This document shows positions 935 through 52,770 of a stretch of 64,000 nucleotides of DNA, piece after piece; the stretch's first letter is position 1, and each line of letters opens with the position of its first letter. Origin of the DNA: Octopus sinensis (lineage: Eukaryota). The translations under genes were made by a program, and so were the position numbers. The stretch covers positions 71,238,001-71,302,000 of the forward strand of contig NC_043002.1 of the NCBI RefSeq assembly GCF_006345805.1. The letters are read 5' to 3'. The notes below the pieces were generated by a model. That model ran no database searches, was not told the origin of the DNA, and worked only from the letters and a program-made list of their open reading frames with translations.

Positions 935-2184
935 CATTGGTTTCGGCCATTATCGGCCCAAGCCAATAGCACCACCAGGAAAAGTCTTTTAATTAATTAT
1001 TTCGGGACACTATAGACCACTCAAACAGAGAGTTGTTTTTGGTTGAGACATATCCAGGTGGTAGGTGGTTTATCCGGTATTTCCTGGAAGAATTTGTCCA
1101 GGCACCGTTTGAAAGTTGTGGGGTCTTTTTGTATTTTAATTTCTTTCAGTATAACATTGAAAAGAGCATGACCATTTGCAGTGAAGAGATTGTGTCCCAA
1201 TGTTCTTAGGTGATGTGATCTCGACCTTTGTAGGGGACGCCTTGCACGGAGGTTTAGTCTTGGATGGATTGTAAACATAATACCGATATCATTTGGATAA
1301 TATTGATGGAATATTTTCCATATGATGCATATAACGTATCGCTCACGACGGTGTTGCAAAGAATTGAGTTTCAGCTGTTTAAGTCGAGCCCAATAATCAA
1401 GTCCTGTCATACCATTTATTTTTTTAGTGATTAACCTTTATGGCACTTCGATCCTCATTATGCCTTTTTTTTTGTAGGGAAACCATAATGGGCAGCATAT
1501 ATAGCGAATGTGGAAAAGAGAAGGATGATGGTTTCATGATCTCTAGATTGAAAAGTTCTAAGGATTCATGAGCATATTCTGTTGACAACATCGACTTTTT
1601 TGTTGATGTACACACTCCAGCTAGGACTGTTGTTGACAATTACACCTGAGTCTCAGATATTATCCGACGGTTCAAATAGGTCTCCCGACGGTAGTGTATA
1701 TGGTTATTTGAGTGTGCCCTCTTTTCCAAAGTGGATGAGCTCAAATTTTTCTACGTTCAACTGCATGTTGTTTCTTTTATACCCACTGGGTTACTGCGCA
1801 TATGTCCGATTGAAGCATCATTGGACCATATGCTCACTTAATGACTTTCTTAAGCTTAGAGTCATCTGCAAATATTTTAATGGTACTATATTCAATGGAA
1901 TCTGCAATGTCAGTGATATAGACAATAAAAAGAAGTGGACCCAGCAGTGTACCCCGCGAGACTCCGCTGATTACTTTTGCTGGGTTTAAGTGCATGCCAT
2001 CCACCGCAACATGCTGGGTCCTGTTTGTTAGGAAATACTTAATCCACTGAAGTAGCTTTCCACCAACTCCAGCGTTGGATAAATTCCTTAACGGCGTATT
2101 ATGGGATACAAGTATGGATGCAAAGTTTGATTTTGCAGTCCTCAAACATTTTAGGAGGTGCGCCTGCAACCCCTGTCCTTGCAC
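935..2184 (-). mobile_element. Decayed, 5'-truncated CR1/Jockey-group LINE (RT C-terminal half plus 3' end)
   Basis: ORF 1834..2184 has LLQWIKYFLTNRTQHVAVDG..SGVSRGTLLGPLLFIVYITDI..IKIFADDSKL (GVPQG and FADD RT motifs). ORF 1021..1410 has DYWARLKQLKLNSLQHRRERY, typical of the CR1-type post-RT region. Frameshifts are present. Confidence 0.88.
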
Positions 2185-2564
2185 CCATGGATGTAAGCGA
2201 ACAAAATATTTTCATTGGCTAGAATTAGCTTCAAAGAACAGTCAAAACAAGTTTCTTAATTTATGCCTTGAGAAATACATAAGAACCACAATCACATATA
2301 GTATTTTCGGTTAAAATATACAGTAGGTTTTGGTACAGTAAAATGAATCCAGTATCACGAGACTGTCGTCAGTGTTATAGGCAAGTAGGAATATGTTTAA
2401 TGAAACATGCCTAGGCCTTGGTTTCGATCACATGCTGGAATAACTTTCATGACTCTAATGTTATTTGTAAAAACTTATATATATTACAGTGAATTATTTA
2501 ACCTATAAAAATGGAAGTACAATGCTTCAACTATTCAAACTGTCTGTTTATAACGATCGCTTAA

Positions 2565-9020: not shown

Positions 9021-10211
9021 TATCACAAGCACTATTTGTACTGACATAGGGAATTACTGGAAACATGCAAATGCTTTCGTATATCATTATGTGAAACGCG
9101 GTTACAATGAATCACGATTAAAGGATATAGCAAATGAAATAGCTAAGTTTAAATCCCACATAATTTCACACATAATTTTAGCAAAGACAATAAAATAGAT
9201 GACAGAATTTCTTTAGTGATTAACTGGCACCGACATTTCGCTGGCATTTCAAATTACAGAGGAGAACTCGACAAAATAATTCTGAAATTGGAGGAAAACA
9301 ATTTCGTTAATTTACGTCTATTTAAAATACACAAAAAAATTCGAAAGATTTCCTCCAATGCGCCCAATTTGCAGCGGATATGAATTTTGCACGGCCAAAA
9401 TTTCGGAATGGCTGGGTGGCTTTCTACTCCCCGTCGCAAAACGATCAAGTTCCTATATTCGTGATACCTTTGATTTTGTGTCTAAATCAACAACTGTTTA
9501 AAGCACTGAGGCCGTATCGAGAACTGTTTTGTTGGTAACCATGGATGTTTCTTCCTTATATCCCAATATTGACCACAATGAAGGAGTAGAAGCATGCATA
9601 GATGCCTTCGAAAAGCGGTCAAACAAAAGTATTCCATCAAATTTTCTCTGTAGATTATTGAGGTTTGTGTTAGAAAATACCACATTGAAGTTTAGACAAC
9701 GATTTTGTCACCCGATGAAGGGCTGCGCCATGGGAACCCCTATGGCAATTAATTTCGTTAATGTTTTCATAACGAAATTCCAGAAACAGTTACAGAAGAC
9801 TGTCAAAATCCTTTCATTGTCATGAACCAATACTCTGGTTACGGTTCATTGATGACGTATCTTTTGCCTGGGTAGGATCACAAGATAGTTTAATGGAATT
9901 CTTGCATTTCTGTGATTGTTATGCTAGAAACTATGGCTTTAAGTCCAACATAAAATTTACGTCTAGTTTTTCAAAACCTAGCGTTGAATTAGAAATATTG
10001 AATTTCTAAATGTCTCAAAGAGACATGAGCGGTGGTGTAACGATAGAGTGGTTGTATAATGTCAAAATAACGTGACAATCCCCTAAAGGGAATTACACCA
10101 CCGCTATATAGCCCTAGGAAGCATCGACACTTCCTGTCGGCTTTGACATATTTCCTGTGTCCTTATATTTGCAAAGGGGAGGCAAGCACCCGCACCAGCT
10201 AGGACTAATAA

Positions 10212-10257
10212 CCTGAAGACATGCACGTTTCTGGGTCTTGCCCGTCATCGGTCCAGG
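10212..10257 (-). ncRNA. Minimal hammerhead ribozyme, core variant CCGATGA
   Basis: cctgga-CCGATGA-cgggcaagaccca-GAAA-cgtgcat-GTC-ttcagg. Confidence 0.6.
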
Positions 10258-10500
10258 GTAGCGAGGCCCGCTAGCAGAGATACCTGCCAAGCTTTTGCAG
10301 ATATATATATATTTACAGTGAAATTTATTCACTGGACACCGTAATTAGAAATATTGAATTTCTAAATGTCTCAAAGAGACATGAGCGATGGTGGAGCGAT
10401 AGAGTGGTTGTATAATGTCAACATAACGTGACAATCCCGTAAAGAGAATTACACCACCGCTATATACCCGGCAGGTATCTCCGCTATCGGGACTCGCTAC

Positions 10501-10546
10501 CCTGGACTGTTGACGGGCAAGACCCAGAAACATGCATGTCTTCAGG
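10501..10546 (+). ncRNA. Minimal hammerhead ribozyme, core variant CTGTTGA
   Basis: cctgga-CTGTTGA-cgggcaagaccca-GAAA-catgcat-GTC-ttcagg; palindromic stem III acatgcatgt. Confidence 0.65.
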
Positions 10547-12061
10547 TTGCTAGTCCTAGCTGGTGGGGGGTGCTTGCCTCCCCTTTGCAAATATAAGTAC
10601 ACAGGAAATGTGCCAAAGCCTACATGAAGCGTCGATGCTTCCTAGGGCTATATAGCGGTCGTGTAATTTTCTTTACAGGATTGTCACGTTATGTTGACAT
10701 TATACAACCACTCTAGCATTGAAGTTTTGGACACAAAAGCTTTCTGGAGGCAGAATAGTGAGAGAGTTATTTTGAAAGCCCACGTCATCCCACATTTATC
10801 TTCACCGCCGCTCCGATCATCCACATCATTTTATTCGATCAAATACGAAATCGCAATTTTTGAGGATAAAACGGATTTGTACTGACATAGGGGATTACTG
10901 GAAACATGCAAATGCTTTCGTATATCATTATGTGAAACGCGGTTACAGTGAATCACGATTAAAGGATATAGCAAATGAAATAGCTAAGATTAGGGAAGAT
11001 AGTCAAACATTCACACATAAGTTTAGCAAAGACAATAAAATAGATGACAGAATTTCTTTAGTGATTAACTGGCACCGACAGTTCGCTGGCATTTCAAAAG
11101 TGTTGCATGAACGTTACCAGCATATGGCGAAAACATATCCTCGTTTCAAATAGATATTTCATCAGCCGCCTATTGTAGCCTTTAGACGGAATCAGAATAT
11201 AAGAGAATTATTGACCTCTATTTCTGACTCCAAGAAAACGAACATTGGCGTATCTGCATGCTATACCTTAAAGAACAGCCGCAAGAGAGGTAAGTCCTGT
11301 TCATTGTGCAACAACATGAGTGAAGTGAATTCCATCAGAAATCATAACATTTCTGTTATGATTTATACAGAAGGCGGAACATGTAAAGATTCCCAATTAG
11401 TGTACGCTGCAGAATGTACGAAACACAACTTAATTTATGTTGGTTGTACAACAGAACAATTAAACAAAAGGTTTAATGGTCACAGATTCGACGTCAGGCA
11501 CAATAACAGTAGTTCGACAGAACTTGCTGAACATTTCGTTTTAAACGGCTGCAATTTTGAAGAAGACTTGAAAGTGCATATTCTCAAAAGATATTCTGAA
11601 CCTGCTTCACTTTCAATTCTCAGAATGTATGAGGAGAAATATGTTTGCAGGTTGCTAACATCACGCCCTGGAAGAATGAATAAAATGACAGGAGAATATC
11701 ATCAAATTTATACAAAACTGTTTAATTAAATATTCTTCTTTCTCTCTTTTTTCTTTCCTCTTTTTTTCCTGTCGTTTTCTTTTTTTGGTTCTTTTTTCAA
11801 TCTTTTTCTTTTCGGCTGTTATAAAATGAAGCTTAAAAACTGATGATGTCATTCCATCAACGTATGGACGCTGGTTGCTCTCGTTCATACTTTACGTTTA
11901 TATTTCTATAATTTTGAATTTTTATCACTTCTTATTTTGAACTTGACAAAGACAGACTCACTGTTGAAATATCGTTCAACTAATAAGATATCTTACAATC
12001 AAATCGCGCTTTTCGTCTTGGCTGTTTCCATTTGTGAAGAGTTACGTCAATCCTTTTTTAA

Positions 12062-12114
<53 letters not shown>

Positions 12115-12190
12115 TAGTTAATAAATTACAAGCCATAGACCTGGCAGTTTGCCGGTAAAGCGCGTTCACTGGCTCGGTGTTCGTTGGGTA

Positions 12191-12551
12191 TGTGATTAAT
12201 AAAAGAGACAGAAGATGGCAGATACGACAACCTTTATTGGCCACTACAATTGTCTCGACCCATCTAGCATCGATTCCTCGCGGGTAGGATATTATACAAC
12301 TGGCTTAGGTGTATCCCCCGGTGTAGATATGTCTCCTCAGGTGATTTGAAGTGGTATCTTGGGAAACAGTTTATTTTAACGAGATACTTCTTGAAATCGC
12401 CTGAGGAAACACATATACACCGAGCGATACACCTAAGCCAGTTGCATAGCATCCCACCTGAGAGGTGGGTCGATGCTAGATGGGTCTAAACAACTGTAAT
12501 AATAAATAAAATTCTTGTATCTTCCATCTGCCGTCTTCTTAATTAATCACA
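12191..12551. repeat. About 360-bp fold-back palindrome made of two head-to-head hammerhead-like units
   Basis: tgtgattaat...attaatcaca termini. The arms are complementary along their length (e.g. gacccatctagcatcga / tcgatgctagatgggtc; caactggcttaggtgtatc / gatacacctaagccagttg), with the centre near 12370. Confidence 0.9.
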
Positions 12552-19071: not shown

Positions 19072-19874
19072 GGAGCAGGCGTAGATGCGTGGTCAGAAGA
19101 TTGCTATTCAACCACATAGTTCTGGTTCAATCCCGCTGCGTGGTATCTTGGACTAGTGTATTCTGCTGTAGCCTTGGGCCGGCCAAAGCCTCATAAGTGA
19201 ATTTAGAAAATGGAAACTAAAAGAAGCCCACTTGGGAGGCACTCGACATGATAAAAGACACCAGTCCGAGTATGAGAAAAGTTCTGAACGCGAACAACAC
19301 CTCTCACAACATCGATAAGTGTACATTATCAAATTGCTCCATCATAGACACCAAAATATGTCCGAAGACCTATGTTGTATACGACGTCAGATGCGGCAAA
19401 TGTGGTGTATGCTACATAGGAAGCACAACAAAAAAACTACACAGACACATAAAAGAACACATGCAGACAGACGCTTCCGCGAAGAAACATCTACGAAAAT
19501 GCCAGACCCGTGAGTTCACAAAACACATTAGGACACAACAGAGCAAAAGAAGCAACCTAAGAATGTCCGAAGCCATATTAATACACCAACGGAAGCCGAG
19601 AGTCAACAACAGAAGAGAGTTAGATGAAGATAACCGGTTGCTATAACAATAATCTTCTACGCATGTCTTCTTCCCCACATACTCACACACATGTAGATCT
19701 GCAAGATTCCCTAATGTCTGAAAAGGGCGGCGGTCATAACCCTGAAATATTGAATAAATGGTGAGTCGCAATGAATTCCCAAGTCGGTTTCTTGTGCTTT
19801 ACCTTGGATTTATATCGCAATATTTCGGCCTTACCCACAAATTTTATATAATATATTTGTATATTTGTATACTG

Positions 19875-38749: not shown

Positions 38750-38830
38750 CTTATAAATAAGGGCAAACGAAAAAATTTCTAATGCCAAATATGCCGAAAA
38801 ATTGGACATATTGTCCATTACCATTATTAC

Positions 38831-38887
38831 CATATCGGACCGATTTCAAGGTTAGTTCGTAAGGACCCTCCCTTCGTCAGTAATACA
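38831..38887 (-). ncRNA. Candidate minimal hammerhead ribozyme (eroded stems)
   Basis: tgtatta-CTGACGA-aggg...cctt-GAAA-tcg-GTC-cgatatg; core intact, stem I imperfect. Confidence 0.55.
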
Positions 38888-39172
38888 TGTGGCAAGGAAA
38901 TAAATGGAATTCTTACTCATACCCATGTAAGAAGCAGAATACTAAGTCATGAGCACAACTAAGACCCCAAATACATCCAAAATAGAAATACCCCAGCCCA
39001 TTCAAGACACGTGTGATTCGAACTGAGGTTCTCACAGAGTGAGAGAGTCCGGAAGTGAACACTTAAATTTATATTTAATGTAGGATAATTTAATGTAGGG
39101 CAATTTTGTTCCTTCGGAAAAAAATTTATCCTACATTAAATATAAATTTATTTATATTTAATGCAAATATTC

Positions 39173-39713: not shown

Positions 39714-42000
39714 ACTATTCTTTAATGAAATATGGCACAAGTGTTGTTAGGAGAAAAAAGAACAGCAAAATTTATAATTACGGAAGAAAATATGTAGGCA
39801 AAAGAAGCTCGTTAGAAATTGTGACTTAATTTCATATAATATTTTATCGTCATCAAAATGGTGGAAAATACTGAATAATTTTGTCTTAGATACACAGTCA
39901 CCAAAAAAAAACGGTGATATATTCGTAGCTGAAACGGTAGATTACAGGTCTGAGTAGTTAGAAGTGTCATAGCGTCAAACCATAAAAACTACAAAAATTA
40001 GTTGTTTTAAATGCTGAGAAGTTGAAGATTTGAGGATCGAAGCAGGCTTCATGATCAGCAAATGTCCCAGTGATGTAGAACCATATCGATGAGCTTAGTC
40101 ACGTGGTGTGATCATTGTTTAAATCAACTGTCGATTCAATAAACGGAAGGGGTGACAAGATATTACCTTACCTTATATTGCTCTTTCAACTAGTGCTGTA
40201 GAGCCTTCTTTGTGAATAGACTTCGACCAGGAAGAGAAATCGGTTTTGAGAATCGACTCATAGAGGTCGCGCCACGCGGCAAAACAATTTTGCTTCAAAA
40301 CATAAATCGGTCAGATAATATATATTGTCGATATCTGAAAAATGTATACGGGAAAATATAGATAAACAATAACAAGCAAAATAAAATACATAGAAAAGAA
40401 ATAAATATCCGTAGATTAATGATTTACGGTCGATCAGGTTTAATCTATCAGATCACTAGGATATTGATAATAAGAAAGAACAGTTAAACTTGTTTTTGTA
40501 GCATTATGGTATCAGCTTTGTCTGAGAGATATAATTTAGTATAGGAATAGTGTAGGAATCGATTAGCATGTGGCGTGTATTTCATTCTGGATTGCTGAAA
40601 GTGAGGTGAGCTTAAGAGAGAAAATCTAAAAGAAATAAATAAATAAGAACATAAATAGTGATGTGTGGTGAAACCAATACAGTAATAATGATATCTGATA
40701 TATGCATAAGAGTAAGACACACATAATGCTAAATCGTGAGATGACGAACGATGGACAAAAGATTACAGTGTGTAACCGTTCCAGAGTACAGTGACATTGT
40801 GTCCACTTAATATTATCTATTGGATATCAGTCTAATTGCCATGATATCGCGATCTATTTGAAAGCAGCCCTGTAATAAACCGTGTTGTCAATAATCGACT
40901 TAGCTTTGATATACCTATTAGAAATCGACTCAGCAGAGTTGGTTCATAGTTGATGAATCAAGGTAAAATTTATTTTTAGTGTTATATTTACAATCCAAAT
41001 CTTTATAGAGTTTACTTTAAAAGGATTGCTGATAGGGAAAATGAAACAGAAGTAAAAATATTTTCCATATCTTTTGTATACGCAGAGGGAATGCATATAT
41101 GGAAATAATGTTAAACTATTCCAAATGGAAATCGAAATCAGATAAGCATTTTTTCTAAATCTTTGTTCAAAACATTGGGATTCGAGAGGATAAAAATAAA
41201 GAACGTTATAATCAACTCACTATAATTCTAGAACGCTGCATAGAATCAAATGCTTCTACGACATCTCTCTCGTTTTCCCGACTCTCTTTTTCTCTTTCTT
41301 TCTCTCTCGTTCAATATTTATATTCATCTCAGTTGCTTTCTGTTCTTCTCACAGGATAAGTCGCTCACCTCACACAGTAAAAAGGAAAAAAAAAAGCACT
41401 TTCTAGCTAGGTAAACAAATCTAAAAGGTATTAGTGAATTATGCAACGCAGTGGTGCGATAAATAGAATTCATGTTTTCATATTTAGTTTTGAAATCTGA
41501 GTTATCCATGAATTTATGATCAACGTGACTGACTTCACAGGGTCGAAGAAACTAGTGTGTTCACACCCATGTCATTATAAAGAAATTTATTATAAAGAAA
41601 TAGTTATTATCGTGGTTTGAAGATAAACTGCAGGCTTATTTCGAATTCAAATGGAGCTGGAACTTCTTTTCAATTCTAAAGAACACTCTATAAAATGGTC
41701 TTTATATGCTAGACACATCAGCCAAATTTCTCTTGAATTATCTCGAATAATAACAAACTTTGAGATACGAGATAGACTTCAAGTTGGCTTCCGTCATAGG
41801 TCTGCTCGAAGCGACAGGAGGATACTAAGCCTACAGCAGGCAACTTGAAATAGTGTATACTTTTATCCACGTATAATTTCATAAAACAATATTTAGATAT
41901 AAGATATAATAGTTAAGTGTATCACATTAAAATTTATCAACTCTTTAGCGAGTAGATTTTGTTTCGTATGTATGCTAGGCTCATGTCTGGTATCATCTCA

Positions 42001-44356: not shown

Positions 44357-45038
44357 CATACATACATTCATACATGGAGAAACACGTATATTCATACATA
44401 CACACAAAGAAAGGACGGATAGAGGAAAACACAGACCGAGTGACAAAGAGAGAGAGAGGAGGGGTGAGAGAGATGCATTAATATTTTATTTCTTCCATGA
44501 CCTCGCAAATTGATCTACTGACAGGAAATATATCAACTAGACCTATCATTTTGGGAATATGTGTGTTCCCTCGTTCTGATATTTATAAAACTGAGAAATA
44601 CAAAAAAATATTCATCCCATTTCTCTACGCTGGAATACACACATATATATTTACATAAGCACACGCTTGCATGCAGAGACGTCAACGATCATGCATGCAT
44701 ATTCTACACATGCACATCACTCTAATAATTTACATACACATAAGCAGCCTGTCTAAATGCCATATACAGATTGCTGAATGCTTATATCTACACATATACT
44801 CTTTTACTCTTTTACTTGTTTCAGTCATTTGACTGCGACTATGCTGGGGTACCGCCTTTAGTCGAGCAAATCGACACGGGCACTTATTCTTTGTAAGCCT
44901 AGTACTTAATCTATTGGTCTATTTTGCCGAAACGCTAATTTACGGGGAAGCAAACACACCAGCATCGGTTGTGAAGCGATGTTGGGGGGACAAACACACA
45001 CACACACACCACACACACACACACATATATATATATTA

Positions 45039-45070
<32 letters not shown>

Positions 45071-45316
45071 ATATTAATTAAGGGTAGAAATTGATATTTA
45101 TCAATTAGGACCAGTGGGCTAGCATATTAAAAAAGAATCCGAAGATTAAAATATTCATATATACCAATTAAGGACTGAACACGAAAAGTGGACAGTCAAC
45201 ATGCTAGATATAGACGTCAAATCGCCATTCACCACAAAAGATTATGTTCTCAGATCAAACTCAGCACAAAACCATAGCAATAAACAAGTGAAAAATATAC
45301 GAAATAAAATAATTAC

Positions 45317-45380
45317 CCATGCACTAATTAGTTTCAGCTGTTATTTTCCGCAAGGAAAACTGCAGCCATCATCAGCATGG
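45317..45380 (-). ncRNA. Hammerhead copy with non-cleavable GTG triplet
   Basis: Same as 45815-45878 except GAAACTAATTA-GTG-catgg. Confidence 0.7.
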
Positions 45381-45814
45381 TCCGTTATAAATGTAATTTG
45401 CTGGACTAGATGCAAACACGATACCGAAATATCGCGTGCATGGAGTTCAGCCTATTACATTTGAATATATCTTTCAAATGCCTTTACTCTGGTATATATG
45501 CCTTTACTCTGGTTTACTTAATTGGTATATATGAATATTTTAATCTTCGGATTCTTTTTTAATATGCTAGACCACTGGTCCTAATTGATAAATATCAATT
45601 TCTACCCTTAATTAATTTTATATAAATAAATATGTTCTCTAACCGATAAATTGACTGCTGCTAATTATTAGCTGCAGGCTAGTTTTCTCGGGCCTCAGCG
45701 CGCCAGAGTAAAGGCATTTGAAAGATATATTCAAATGTAATAGGCTGAACTCCATGCACGCGATATTTCGGTATCGTGTTTGCATCTAGTCCGGCAAATT
45801 ACATTTATAACGGA

Positions 45815-45878
45815 CCATGCTGATGATGGCTGCAGTTTTCCTTGCGGAAAATAACAGCTGAAACTAATTAGTACATGG
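45815..45878 (+). ncRNA. Type-I hammerhead ribozyme, intact core
   Basis: ccatg-CTGATGA-tggctgcagttttccttgcggaaaataacagct-GAAA-ctaatta-GTA-catgg; palindromic stem III actaattagt; predicted cleavage after 45873. Confidence 0.85.
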
Positions 45879-46031
45879 GTAATTATTTTATTTCGTATAT
45901 TTTTCACTTGTTTATTGCTATGGTTTTGTGCTGAGTTTGATCTGAGAACATAATCTTTTGTGGTGAATGGCGATTTGACGTCTATATCTAGCATGTTGAC
46001 TGTCCACTTTTCGTGTTCAGTCCTTAATTGG

Positions 46032-46069
<38 letters not shown>

Positions 46070-46358
46070 ATATATATATACGACGGGCTTCTTCAGTTTC
46101 CCTCTACCAAATCCACTCACAAGGCTTTGGTCGACCCAAAGCTTTTGAAACAGTTGACCAAGGTGCCACGCAGTGGGACTGAACTCGGAACCATGTGGTT
46201 GGTAAGCAAGCTACTTACCACACAGCCATTCCTGCGCCTATAAAAATGATTTTAAATTAAAAGTTACTCCTAACCACGACGTGATACGATCACGCAGCTA
46301 CCCGATCTGGAGTCATACGCACTACCATTACTCCACCGGGCCCCATACATATATATAA

Positions 46359-51155: not shown

Positions 51156-51197
<42 letters not shown>

Positions 51198-51198
<1 letters not shown>

Positions 51199-52770
51199 TG
51201 GAATACTCTCAGATTCAATGTACGAACATCTAGGAAAAAATGGAATCCTGCCACATAAGCAGAAGGGTCCCAATCGTAAGTGCAGAGGTACCAAGGATCA
51301 ACTCCTGATAGATAAAACTGTACTCAGGGACTGCAAGAGGAAGAAAAGTAACTTAGCCATGGCATGGATCGACTATCGTAAGGCGTACGATATGATCCCA
51401 CCTTCCTTGATTATGGAGTGTATGAACCTGTTTGGGATTGCATCGAATGTTGAGCGATTTCTTAGAAAAAGTATGGGGAATTTGGAAGACGGACCTGACA
51501 GCATTCGGAAGAAGTTTAGGGACAGTAGAAATTAGGAGGGGCATCTTCCAAGGAGACTGCCTGATCTTTGTACCGTGCTTGATACCACTGACACTGATTC
51601 TGAGGAAAGCAAAAGTGGGTATGCATTCAAAAGCCGCCAACAAAAAGCCAGCCATTTGTTATCCATGGATGACCTCAAACTTTATGATAAAGATGAAGCC
51701 CAAGTCAGTTACCTCGTTGATACAGTGTATACTTTCAGTGCTGATAGCAGAATGGAGTTCGAACTGAGCAAGTGTGATATGTTAGTATTGAAGACAGGCA
51801 AAATAAAATGTATGGACGGACTAACGATACAGTCGGGGAAGTTTATGAAGCAGATAGAAGAGACGGGCTATAAGTATTTGGGGATTTTGGAAATGAATAA
51901 ATTAATGGAGAAAGAAATGACAGGAAAATTTAAGGTAGAGTACTTACGCAGACTGAGACTGATCCTTAAATCGAAATTAAACGGACTGAATAAGATCGAA
52001 GCTATTAACACCTGGGAAGTTTCACTACTTAGATATGAAGCAGGGGTAATGGTATGGATAGTAGACGAACTAAACAGCTTAGACAGAAAGACAAGAAATT
52101 TGCTAACTAGATATGGGTTACTCCACCCCAAAATTGGCACAGACAGACTATATGTACCAAGCAAAAGAGGGGGAAAAGGACTTATTGGATGCAAACACAG
52201 CATTAGAGCAGAAGGAAACAACATAGCATGGTATGTAAAAATGCCACAGAACCGCTATTGTTAGAAGTATGAAGGTCAGGCGTGTGTAAAGATGAAAGAT
52301 TGCAAAGATAAAGCACTATAAAAGAAATTGAAAACTAATGAAACTGAAAATAGGTGGTTAAAGAAAATAATGTATGTTCAATTTCATAGGGATGTTGAAG
52401 ATAAGACAGACAAAAAATGGATGGCTATGGATGACTAAAAGTGATTTAAAACCGGAAACGAAGGCTCTAATCTATGCTGCCTATGAGCAAGCTGTAAGAA
52501 CAAACTACATAAAATACAGAATAGAAAACATCAGAAAGTGATAAGTGCAGAATCTGTGGAAAAACGGTGAAATCGTATGGCATTTTACCAGCCAATGTAC
52601 GCCACTAACCCAGAAGGAATATGACAACGCCATGACAATGTAGTCAGGCTTGTCCATTGGACACGTTGCAACAAGTATGGACTTCACAGAGCCAAAAACC
52701 TGAAGGCATTGTCGAAAATAGAAATGCAAAGATCCTATGAGATTTTATGATTCAGTGAGACCATAAGATT
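51198..52770 (+). mobile_element. R4/Dong-like LINE, decayed RT to CCHC region (copy 1)
   Basis: [62 protein letters not shown]. Begins right after (AAT)n; same family as 7800-8650. Confidence 0.92.

Follow-up and report, generated by a model that had tools for sequence, protein, structure and literature searches.

A recent-looking head-to-head double copy of a 506-nt hammerhead repeat in a (TA)n tract of the Octopus sinensis genome

In the Octopus sinensis genome, two copies of a small repeat carrying a hammerhead ribozyme face each other within a (TA)n tract, which raises the question of what kind of element the repeat is, and from which template and by which enzyme it was inserted. The locus was analysed within a 64,000-nt stretch of contig NC_043002.1 (the window), and all positions are those of the window. 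An earlier note, made from the same letters, had proposed a 506-nt monomer at 45517-46022 on the + strand followed by a restart. Both were present in the sequence: the full monomer (35% GC, no recognisable ORF) was followed by a 14-nt restart of the unit (46023-46036), which formed the outer end of the + arm and passed into the right (TA)n tract (46037-46080) through a TATATAT microhomology. On the other side lay an inverted, 5'-truncated arm of 420 nt (45073-45492, - strand), the outer end of which entered the left (TA)n tract (45024-45072) with imperfect homology. The 5' ends of the two arms faced each other, and both 3' ends lay in (TA)n. A target-site duplication was considered and rejected; a similar TT interruption occurred in both TA tracts, yet they did not align as a duplication, and none could be called. 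The insertion and its (TA)n target were flanked by SINE-like repeats at 44790-45020 and 46080-46240, which presumably resemble octopus SINEs.

The inverted truncated copy claimed to the left of the + unit was recovered by BLAST of the region against the window, as a match of 342 bp at 98.8% (E 1e-173) between 45151-45492 (-) and 45703-46044 (+). Two of the four mismatches fell where the + arm was already in (TA)n. The same search gave a second inverted match of 115 bp at 96.5%, and 45073-45172 of the inverted arm matched unit 45517-45616, which added 100 nt beyond the inverted copy noted earlier. The two matches formed one piece, so that the inverted arm was continuous over 420 nt and crossed the join between the end and the start of the monomer. 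The near-identity of the arms described earlier was real, while the length given for it (about 330 bp) was too short. When the unit was divided into segments A (45517-45620), B (45621-45702) and C (45703-46022), the + arm was organized as A-B-C-a and the left arm as C-A; read in the ribozyme direction, the left arm consisted of unit 45703-46022 and then, unbroken, 45517-45616. No further copy of the unit was found by BLAST within the 64-kb window.

The arms differed at only 3 of 420 sites (45402/45793, 45322/45873, and 45118/45571), in agreement with the recent insertion claimed earlier. Two alleles in the minority within the family, C45581 and C45931, were common to both arms, pointing to one source for both. 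Judged by its sequence, the insertion is a recent-looking head-to-head double copy of a 506-nt repeat. A-to-I editing of the template was considered as the origin of two A>G differences between the arms and was set aside, because only these two differences exist and A>G was not evidently overrepresented in the 36 family variants.

The head-to-head junction consisted of 24 nt (45493-45516) with templated inserts. The first insert, of 8 nt, came from unit 45526-45533 and was entered via a TGG microhomology; the 11 nt at 45490-45500 matched unit 45523-45533, with TGG common at the entry. In the second, 45498-45512 re-copied the arm end 45478-45492, with entry via ATG, and a 4-nt filler followed. 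The short junction duplication that had been claimed was thus located at 45478 and 45498. Templated junction inserts are read as microhomology-guided end joining or as jumps of the reverse transcriptase (RT).

Such inserts are typical, as general knowledge, of end-joining repair, and together with the rare alleles common to both arms they would suit an origin at the DNA level, in which the inverted arm was copied from the + arm after insertion by a fold-back or by a template switch in replication. This is very unlikely, given the composition of the left arm, which contained C and 100 nt of A, whereas the + arm had only 14 nt of A after C. A second switch, exactly in register and recreating the family's own join, would also be needed, and the left arm stopped where other copies of the family stop. 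Also very unlikely is an assembly chimera, with two copies of a high-copy family fused into one inverted structure. This reading would draw on the microsatellites on both sides and on the trouble that such structures cause in assemblies (PMC8557442), and among the contigs listed from public runs none spanned the locus-specific junction 45493-45516, which in short repeat contigs is not evidence of absence; however, the junction was a unique 24-nt sequence with a templated logic, and the arms differed at three sites yet had minority alleles in common.

Both arms had the type I hammerhead arrangement, in which three helices surround a CUGANGA and GAAA core and helix I is left open. In the + arm, the ribozyme spanned 45815-45878, with helix I at 45815-45819/45874-45878, the core at 45820-45826, an extra U at 45827, helix II with an internal loop at 45828-45859, GAAA at 45860-45863, and a palindromic helix III at 45863-45872. 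The cut was predicted after A45873. The assignment draws on the core and on compensatory variants in helices II and III; the compensatory pairs were 45832/45855, 45838/45849, and 45866/45869, all in a diverged contig. The second copy (45317-45380, - strand) carried a private change at 45322. The two triplets were as described before, GTA at 45871-45873 (+) and GTG at 45324-45322 (-). According to the NUH rule for hammerhead cleavage triplets, in which H is not G (PMC2238771), the GUA of the + arm is allowed, while the GUG of the inverted arm breaks the rule, and the copy formerly called disabled is predicted to be non-cleaving. Among 36 variant rows from public runs, A>G at 45873 was absent; GTA was therefore considered as the family norm and GUG as private to the left arm.

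The traits of the hammerheads of Penelope-like elements (PLEs) include an extra base that separates position 9 from position 10.1 and a helix III that is palindromic (PMC4209133). Both were found here, as U45827 and as the 10-nt palindrome 45863-45872, the self-duplex of which was predicted at -9.0 kcal/mol. PLE hammerheads are thought to work as dimers (PMC4209133, PMC6765202). The 10.1-11.1 pair, which is G-C in PLE-type hammerheads, was G-U in the window, and a T>C change at 45859 made it G-C in a minority of family contigs.

The + copy had been called the best candidate for an active ribozyme, a claim that was not borne out. The motif was intact, but helix III was a short palindrome of the dimer type, the catalytic fold was predicted 3.1 kcal/mol above the minimum-energy fold, which is non-catalytic, and a read-through transcript was predicted to bury the motif in a hairpin of about 340 bp. 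An active locus, as defined by Li, Clavereau, and Pollet (2026; bioRxiv 10.64898/2026.07.22.740005), requires at least two units in a row, all of them with a complete hammerhead; here, only one ribozyme was present per strand. Because of this, the locus would be unable to release a monomer, and from the model it is probably a dead end and not an active source. The Rfam search of the whole window gave no matches at the gathering score, and no hammerhead was among the 17 matches obtained for 45000-46100 at E<=10. A 20-nt ribozyme pattern had no hits in viral contigs; in metagenomes it gave 15 loci, all of which matched over only 20-27 nt at the seed and were therefore discarded as chance matches.

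The unit, or part of it, was present in 20 of 24 listed public runs, from 10 studies; no run with it was recorded as RNA, which counts in neither direction. Four runs (X1, X2, X5, and X16) were compared over 45440-46030; the status of X5 and X16 as RNA is a guess. X1 gave 1791 contigs and X2 gave 1531, mostly 90-100% alike, and the 506-nt unit is read from these as a many-copy family, the contig depth sums being left unused as copy numbers. The head-to-tail join 46022->45517, which goes back 506 nt, was found in two contigs of X2 and in one 480-nt contig of X5 (164 letters on the short side). In X1, a loose end matching this join was found in seven contigs, and in X16 the joint was absent. Of the four runs, two thus contained the join seen in the window and a third contained a matching loose end, in agreement with a template longer than one linear cleaved monomer, although such contigs cannot tell arrays, circles, and partial tandems apart. 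The 480-nt contig of X5 was permuted and extended over both the join and the cleavage site. Three variants common in X1 and X2 (45580, 45590, and 45964) were missing from X5, which is therefore unlike a random sample of genomic copies; its contig fits a transcript of one subfamily, but also a targeted DNA library. One contig of X16 contained a joint 45534->45967 between opposite unit strands, which hints at another inverted insertion of the family elsewhere.

The 520 nt of the + arm and the 420 nt of the left arm extended past the cleavage site and over the join between monomers. Had the template been a linear monomer cut at 45873, copying from the two outer end points would have stopped after about 160 or 250 nt, which points to an uncut multimer or a circle as the template, unless the RT jumped precisely between monomers. 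The circular or multimeric template suggested by the earlier note was upheld in so far as the arms crossed the scissile bond and the template was longer than one linear cleaved monomer; as to circle or multimer, both fit.

The outer ends of the arms coincided with poorly paired AU loops of the predicted fold. The first loop (45517-45531, +) contained UAUAUAU and is the putative priming site at the end of the + arm. The second (45607-45630, +) is the putative priming site of the inverted arm; it contained that arm's end and was a common end of other family copies, with 5 of the 18 loose-end rows shown (of 160) falling after 45613-45633 and being TA-rich. By an 11-nt sliding measure of pairing, position 45530 ranked 17 and position 45616 ranked 6 of 506, and the two outer ends fell in the two least stably paired of 34 bins of 15 nt. 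In the model, both AU loops can pair with (TA)n.

The longest ATG ORF of the unit was 19 aa on the ribozyme strand and 87 aa on the other strand. Neither of the two 100-aa stop-free frames of 45073-46036 had a match in Pfam, the scan of the window covering 84 of its 105 stop-free frames of at least 90 aa, and no ORF for RT plus GIY-YIG, as carried by autonomous PLEs with an endonuclease (EN+ PLEs), was found in or beside the unit. In lacking coding sequence and in having a GC content below 50%, the unit was like a retrozyme.

Folded as a ring, the unit had a predicted energy of -144 kcal/mol (z -8.7, 40 shuffles), and the opposite strand had a z of -4.4. In the first control, a GC regression over 124 windows, the unit was unremarkable (residual z -1.2, with 9 windows lower). 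Because hairpin elements and (TA)n inflate the spread, the control was redone on windows without microsatellites or exact inverted repeats. Of 64 such control windows, 53 were scored; relative to their shuffles they averaged -3.6 kcal/mol and went no lower than -30, so that the unit, at 40 kcal/mol below its own shuffles, exceeded them all. A highly self-paired predicted structure, as in retrozymes, was thus obtained, though the first control was weak.

Predicted pairs were broken by 5 of 36 family variants versus 14.5 expected, and 6 of the 36 made three two-sided changes versus 0.8 expected, in a test that used one structure predicted from one sequence, with statistics that ignore kinship and with a single diverged contig carrying 19 of the 36 variants, which are thus non-independent. 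A fourth two-sided change, 45866/45869, was in the catalytic helix III. Outside the ribozyme, 3 of 24 variants broke pairs versus 7.4 expected (P 0.012); for the fold of the opposite strand, the same test gave 7 versus 9.9 expected, which was not significant (P 0.11). The segment 45694-45730 (+) formed the 5' side of a predicted long-range rod and paired with 45895-45935; another such rod was predicted between 45561-45570 and 45988-45997. Within the first rod, the pair 45698/45931 was G-C here and A-U in most family copies; A at 45698 and U at 45931 were both at 100% in X5 and X16, as read from contigs none of which covers both sites. The nested fold is equally open to a linear monomer in the model, and hence is no proof of a circle.

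The Penelope-like inverted layout that had been claimed agreed with the PLE structure described in PMC8557442, where an inverted 5'-truncated copy, an optional tail, and a (TA)n bias are given as PLE traits. An inverted 5'-truncated copy, a one-sided tail, and a microsatellite target were all present here, as in EN+ PLEs. The purified protein of Poseidon, a PLE, cuts and extends both strands of AT-rich DNA; its copying begins at two internal positions, which set the tail, and RNA that has not been processed is its main template (PMC11167929). Relics of RT and GIY-YIG were detected by Pfam in the same window, at 9502-11729 and 19221-19646, and BLAST showed no similarity of the unit to the PLE relics of the window. 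Naiad elements were considered as the parent and disfavoured, as they are described as being without canonical hammerheads (PMC8557442).

The 506-nt unit is thus likely to be a non-autonomous retroelement of the retrozyme type, inserted head to head in (TA)n by a Penelope-like RT/GIY-YIG endonuclease. Source arrays would be transcribed as compactly folding multimers; from these, dimeric hammerheads may release 506-nt monomers, which may then circularise. A helper endonuclease would then cut both (TA)n strands, and each 3' end would prime internally in an open AU loop, near 45530 or 45616, where the arms end, leaving an 86-nt 'tail' on one end only. Over their 520 and 420 nt, both copies passed the cleavage site and the join, and the template was not a single linear cleaved monomer. 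The inner ends would be joined by microhomology-guided synthesis, giving the templated junction with its inserts. GUG would have arisen privately in the left arm, in a locus that presumably cannot release a monomer alone. Several points count against this best explanation: the start site of the purified PLE protein is described as not homologous to the cut DNA, whereas microhomology was found at the ends here; the PLE relics of the window had no similarity to the unit by BLAST; Rfam did not recognise the ribozyme; X16 was without the head-to-tail joint; and both the first folding control and the variant test had the weaknesses given above.

A more specific scenario is conceivable, though on balance doubtful. 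In it, the 506-nt RNA is expressed as a viroid-like circle with its whole structure under selection, and a Penelope RT copies the circle, priming from the two open AU loops on both cut (TA)n strands, so that the 520-nt arm would represent a full turn plus 14 nt. If true, the locus would be a direct genomic footprint of the proposed PLE mobilisation of retrozyme circles, and the unit would be a minimal natural cis template for PLE insertion.

The unit could instead be the pLTR plus tail of an autonomous PLE, or a one-off ORF-deleted copy, with the restart as the usual partial tandem and with no small-RNA cycle. The PLE type of the ribozyme, with its base between 9 and 10.1 and its palindromic helix III (PMC4209133), would be expected of such an element, the layout agrees with the figure 2 legend of PMC8557442, and the fold could accommodate an ORF as a loop at the open segment 45607-45630. 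However, segments A and B were bridged without an insert in X2 (record 17), X16 (record 9), and X5 (record 25), and A->B and C->A were direct in several independent contigs, so that an ORF could not fit between the segments in those copies. Contigs that continued into unlike sequence made up a fraction of about 0 in X1, X2, and X5 and of 0.11 in X16, and nothing recognisably coding was seen at the 18 loose ends shown (of 160); both are weak indications, as the contigs were short. This origin is considered rather unlikely.

The retrozyme-type element inserted by a PLE can be compared with known systems. The metazoan non-LTR retrozymes are described as 170-400 nt long (Cervera and de la Pena 2020, PMC7229834). 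Like these (PMC7229834), the unit was non-coding, low in GC, and joined head to tail; it had a hammerhead of type I, its predicted ring was highly self-paired, and PLE-dependent mobility is proposed for both. Unlike them (PMC7229834), it had 506 nt and a ribozyme of the PLE type, where theirs is canonical with loop-loop contacts; it was also found as a dispersed head-to-head insertion, not an array, and its circular RNA form is putative. Retrozymes were viewed as non-autonomous PLE derivatives by Li et al. (bioRxiv 10.64898/2026.07.22.740005), who compared 35 genomes (31 vertebrates, 3 insects, and 1 coral) for co-occurrence and phylogeny, and only one of the nine dimers tested there cleaved. 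The 506 nt of the unit falls within the 51-972 bp of their retrozymes, among which monomeric dispersed derivatives and a link to pLTRs are also described. In contrast to that study, the link to PLEs here is the insertion signature itself, and the locus is not 'active' in their sense. By its sequence, the family is probably a member of the non-LTR retrozymes and is in line with the proposal that these derive from PLEs and lack autonomy.

With EN+ PLEs of the Neptune or Penelope/Poseidon clades (PMC8557442), the insertion shared the inverted 5'-truncated copy at the 5' end, the one-sided tail, and the microsatellite target, and with EN+ PLEs (PMC4209133) the hammerhead with an inserted base and a palindromic helix III; unlike them, it had no RT/GIY-YIG ORF, and its tail was 86 nt versus 30-40 in the elements described (PMC8557442). 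For the Poseidon of Anolis, PAc, both strands of AT-rich DNA were cut and extended in vitro (Frangieh 2024, PMC11167929), with two internal starts downstream of the ribozyme and uncut RNA as the template (PMC11167929), as is suggested for the present locus. In PAc, the start is described as an AC-rich stem-loop inside the ORF, without homology to the target (PMC11167929), whereas here the ends lay in AU loops of a non-coding RNA and had microhomology to (TA)n.

In the literature searched, judged mostly from listings and abstracts, neither the 506-nt family nor a head-to-head retrozyme insertion was described. A squid genome is reported to have 235 hammerhead loci (PMC6962438), and the PLE mobilisation of animal retrozymes was proposed from co-occurrence, shared ribozymes, and phylogeny (PMC7229834; bioRxiv 10.64898/2026.07.22.740005). 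The class itself has thus already been described, and what is unusual is the legible insertion record. The locus displays a PLE insertion signature on a small, non-coding unit with a strong predicted fold, and both putative priming points and the read-through of the cleavage site are legible in it. With a helper RT in hand, the 506-nt RNA would be a compact substrate for tests of circle versus multimer and of double-strand priming.

Several other elements were observed in the window. The PLE relic at 9040-12060 (+) was broken, with an RT fragment (9502-9825), a GIY-YIG domain with a cysteine-rich linker (11154-11729), and, upstream near 9040-9220, a short second copy of the sequence encoding the linker, and it ended in (ATT)n. 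The cysteines upstream of GIY-YIG in the 9502-11729 relic resemble, by sequence, the linker described for Neptune/Nematis. Inside this relic, imperfect inverted repeats of about 250 bp (91%) formed a fold-back element at 10039-10720, the start of which recurred in direct orientation near 10345. After the (ATT)n tract, at 12145-12520, lay a further fold-back element, again with strong self-complementarity. The second GIY-YIG relic (19221-19860, +) belonged to a different family; after it came what may be a degenerate pLTR, with (TG)n at its end. Weak RVT_1 matches below the Pfam cut-off at 1834-2211 (-) and 51161-52264 (+) looked like LINE-type RT fragments. The region 39975-40480 folded 23 kcal/mol below its shuffles (z about -7, 8 shuffles), and the scans found no ribozyme within it. 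A second, unrelated type I hammerhead-like motif was present at 38750-39170 (-), with its core at 38880, a CUGACGA core, and an AUA triplet. This element ended in (TA)n and folded at z -5.3, partly via an internal inverted repeat, and it is probably another family of the same kind as the 506-nt unit.
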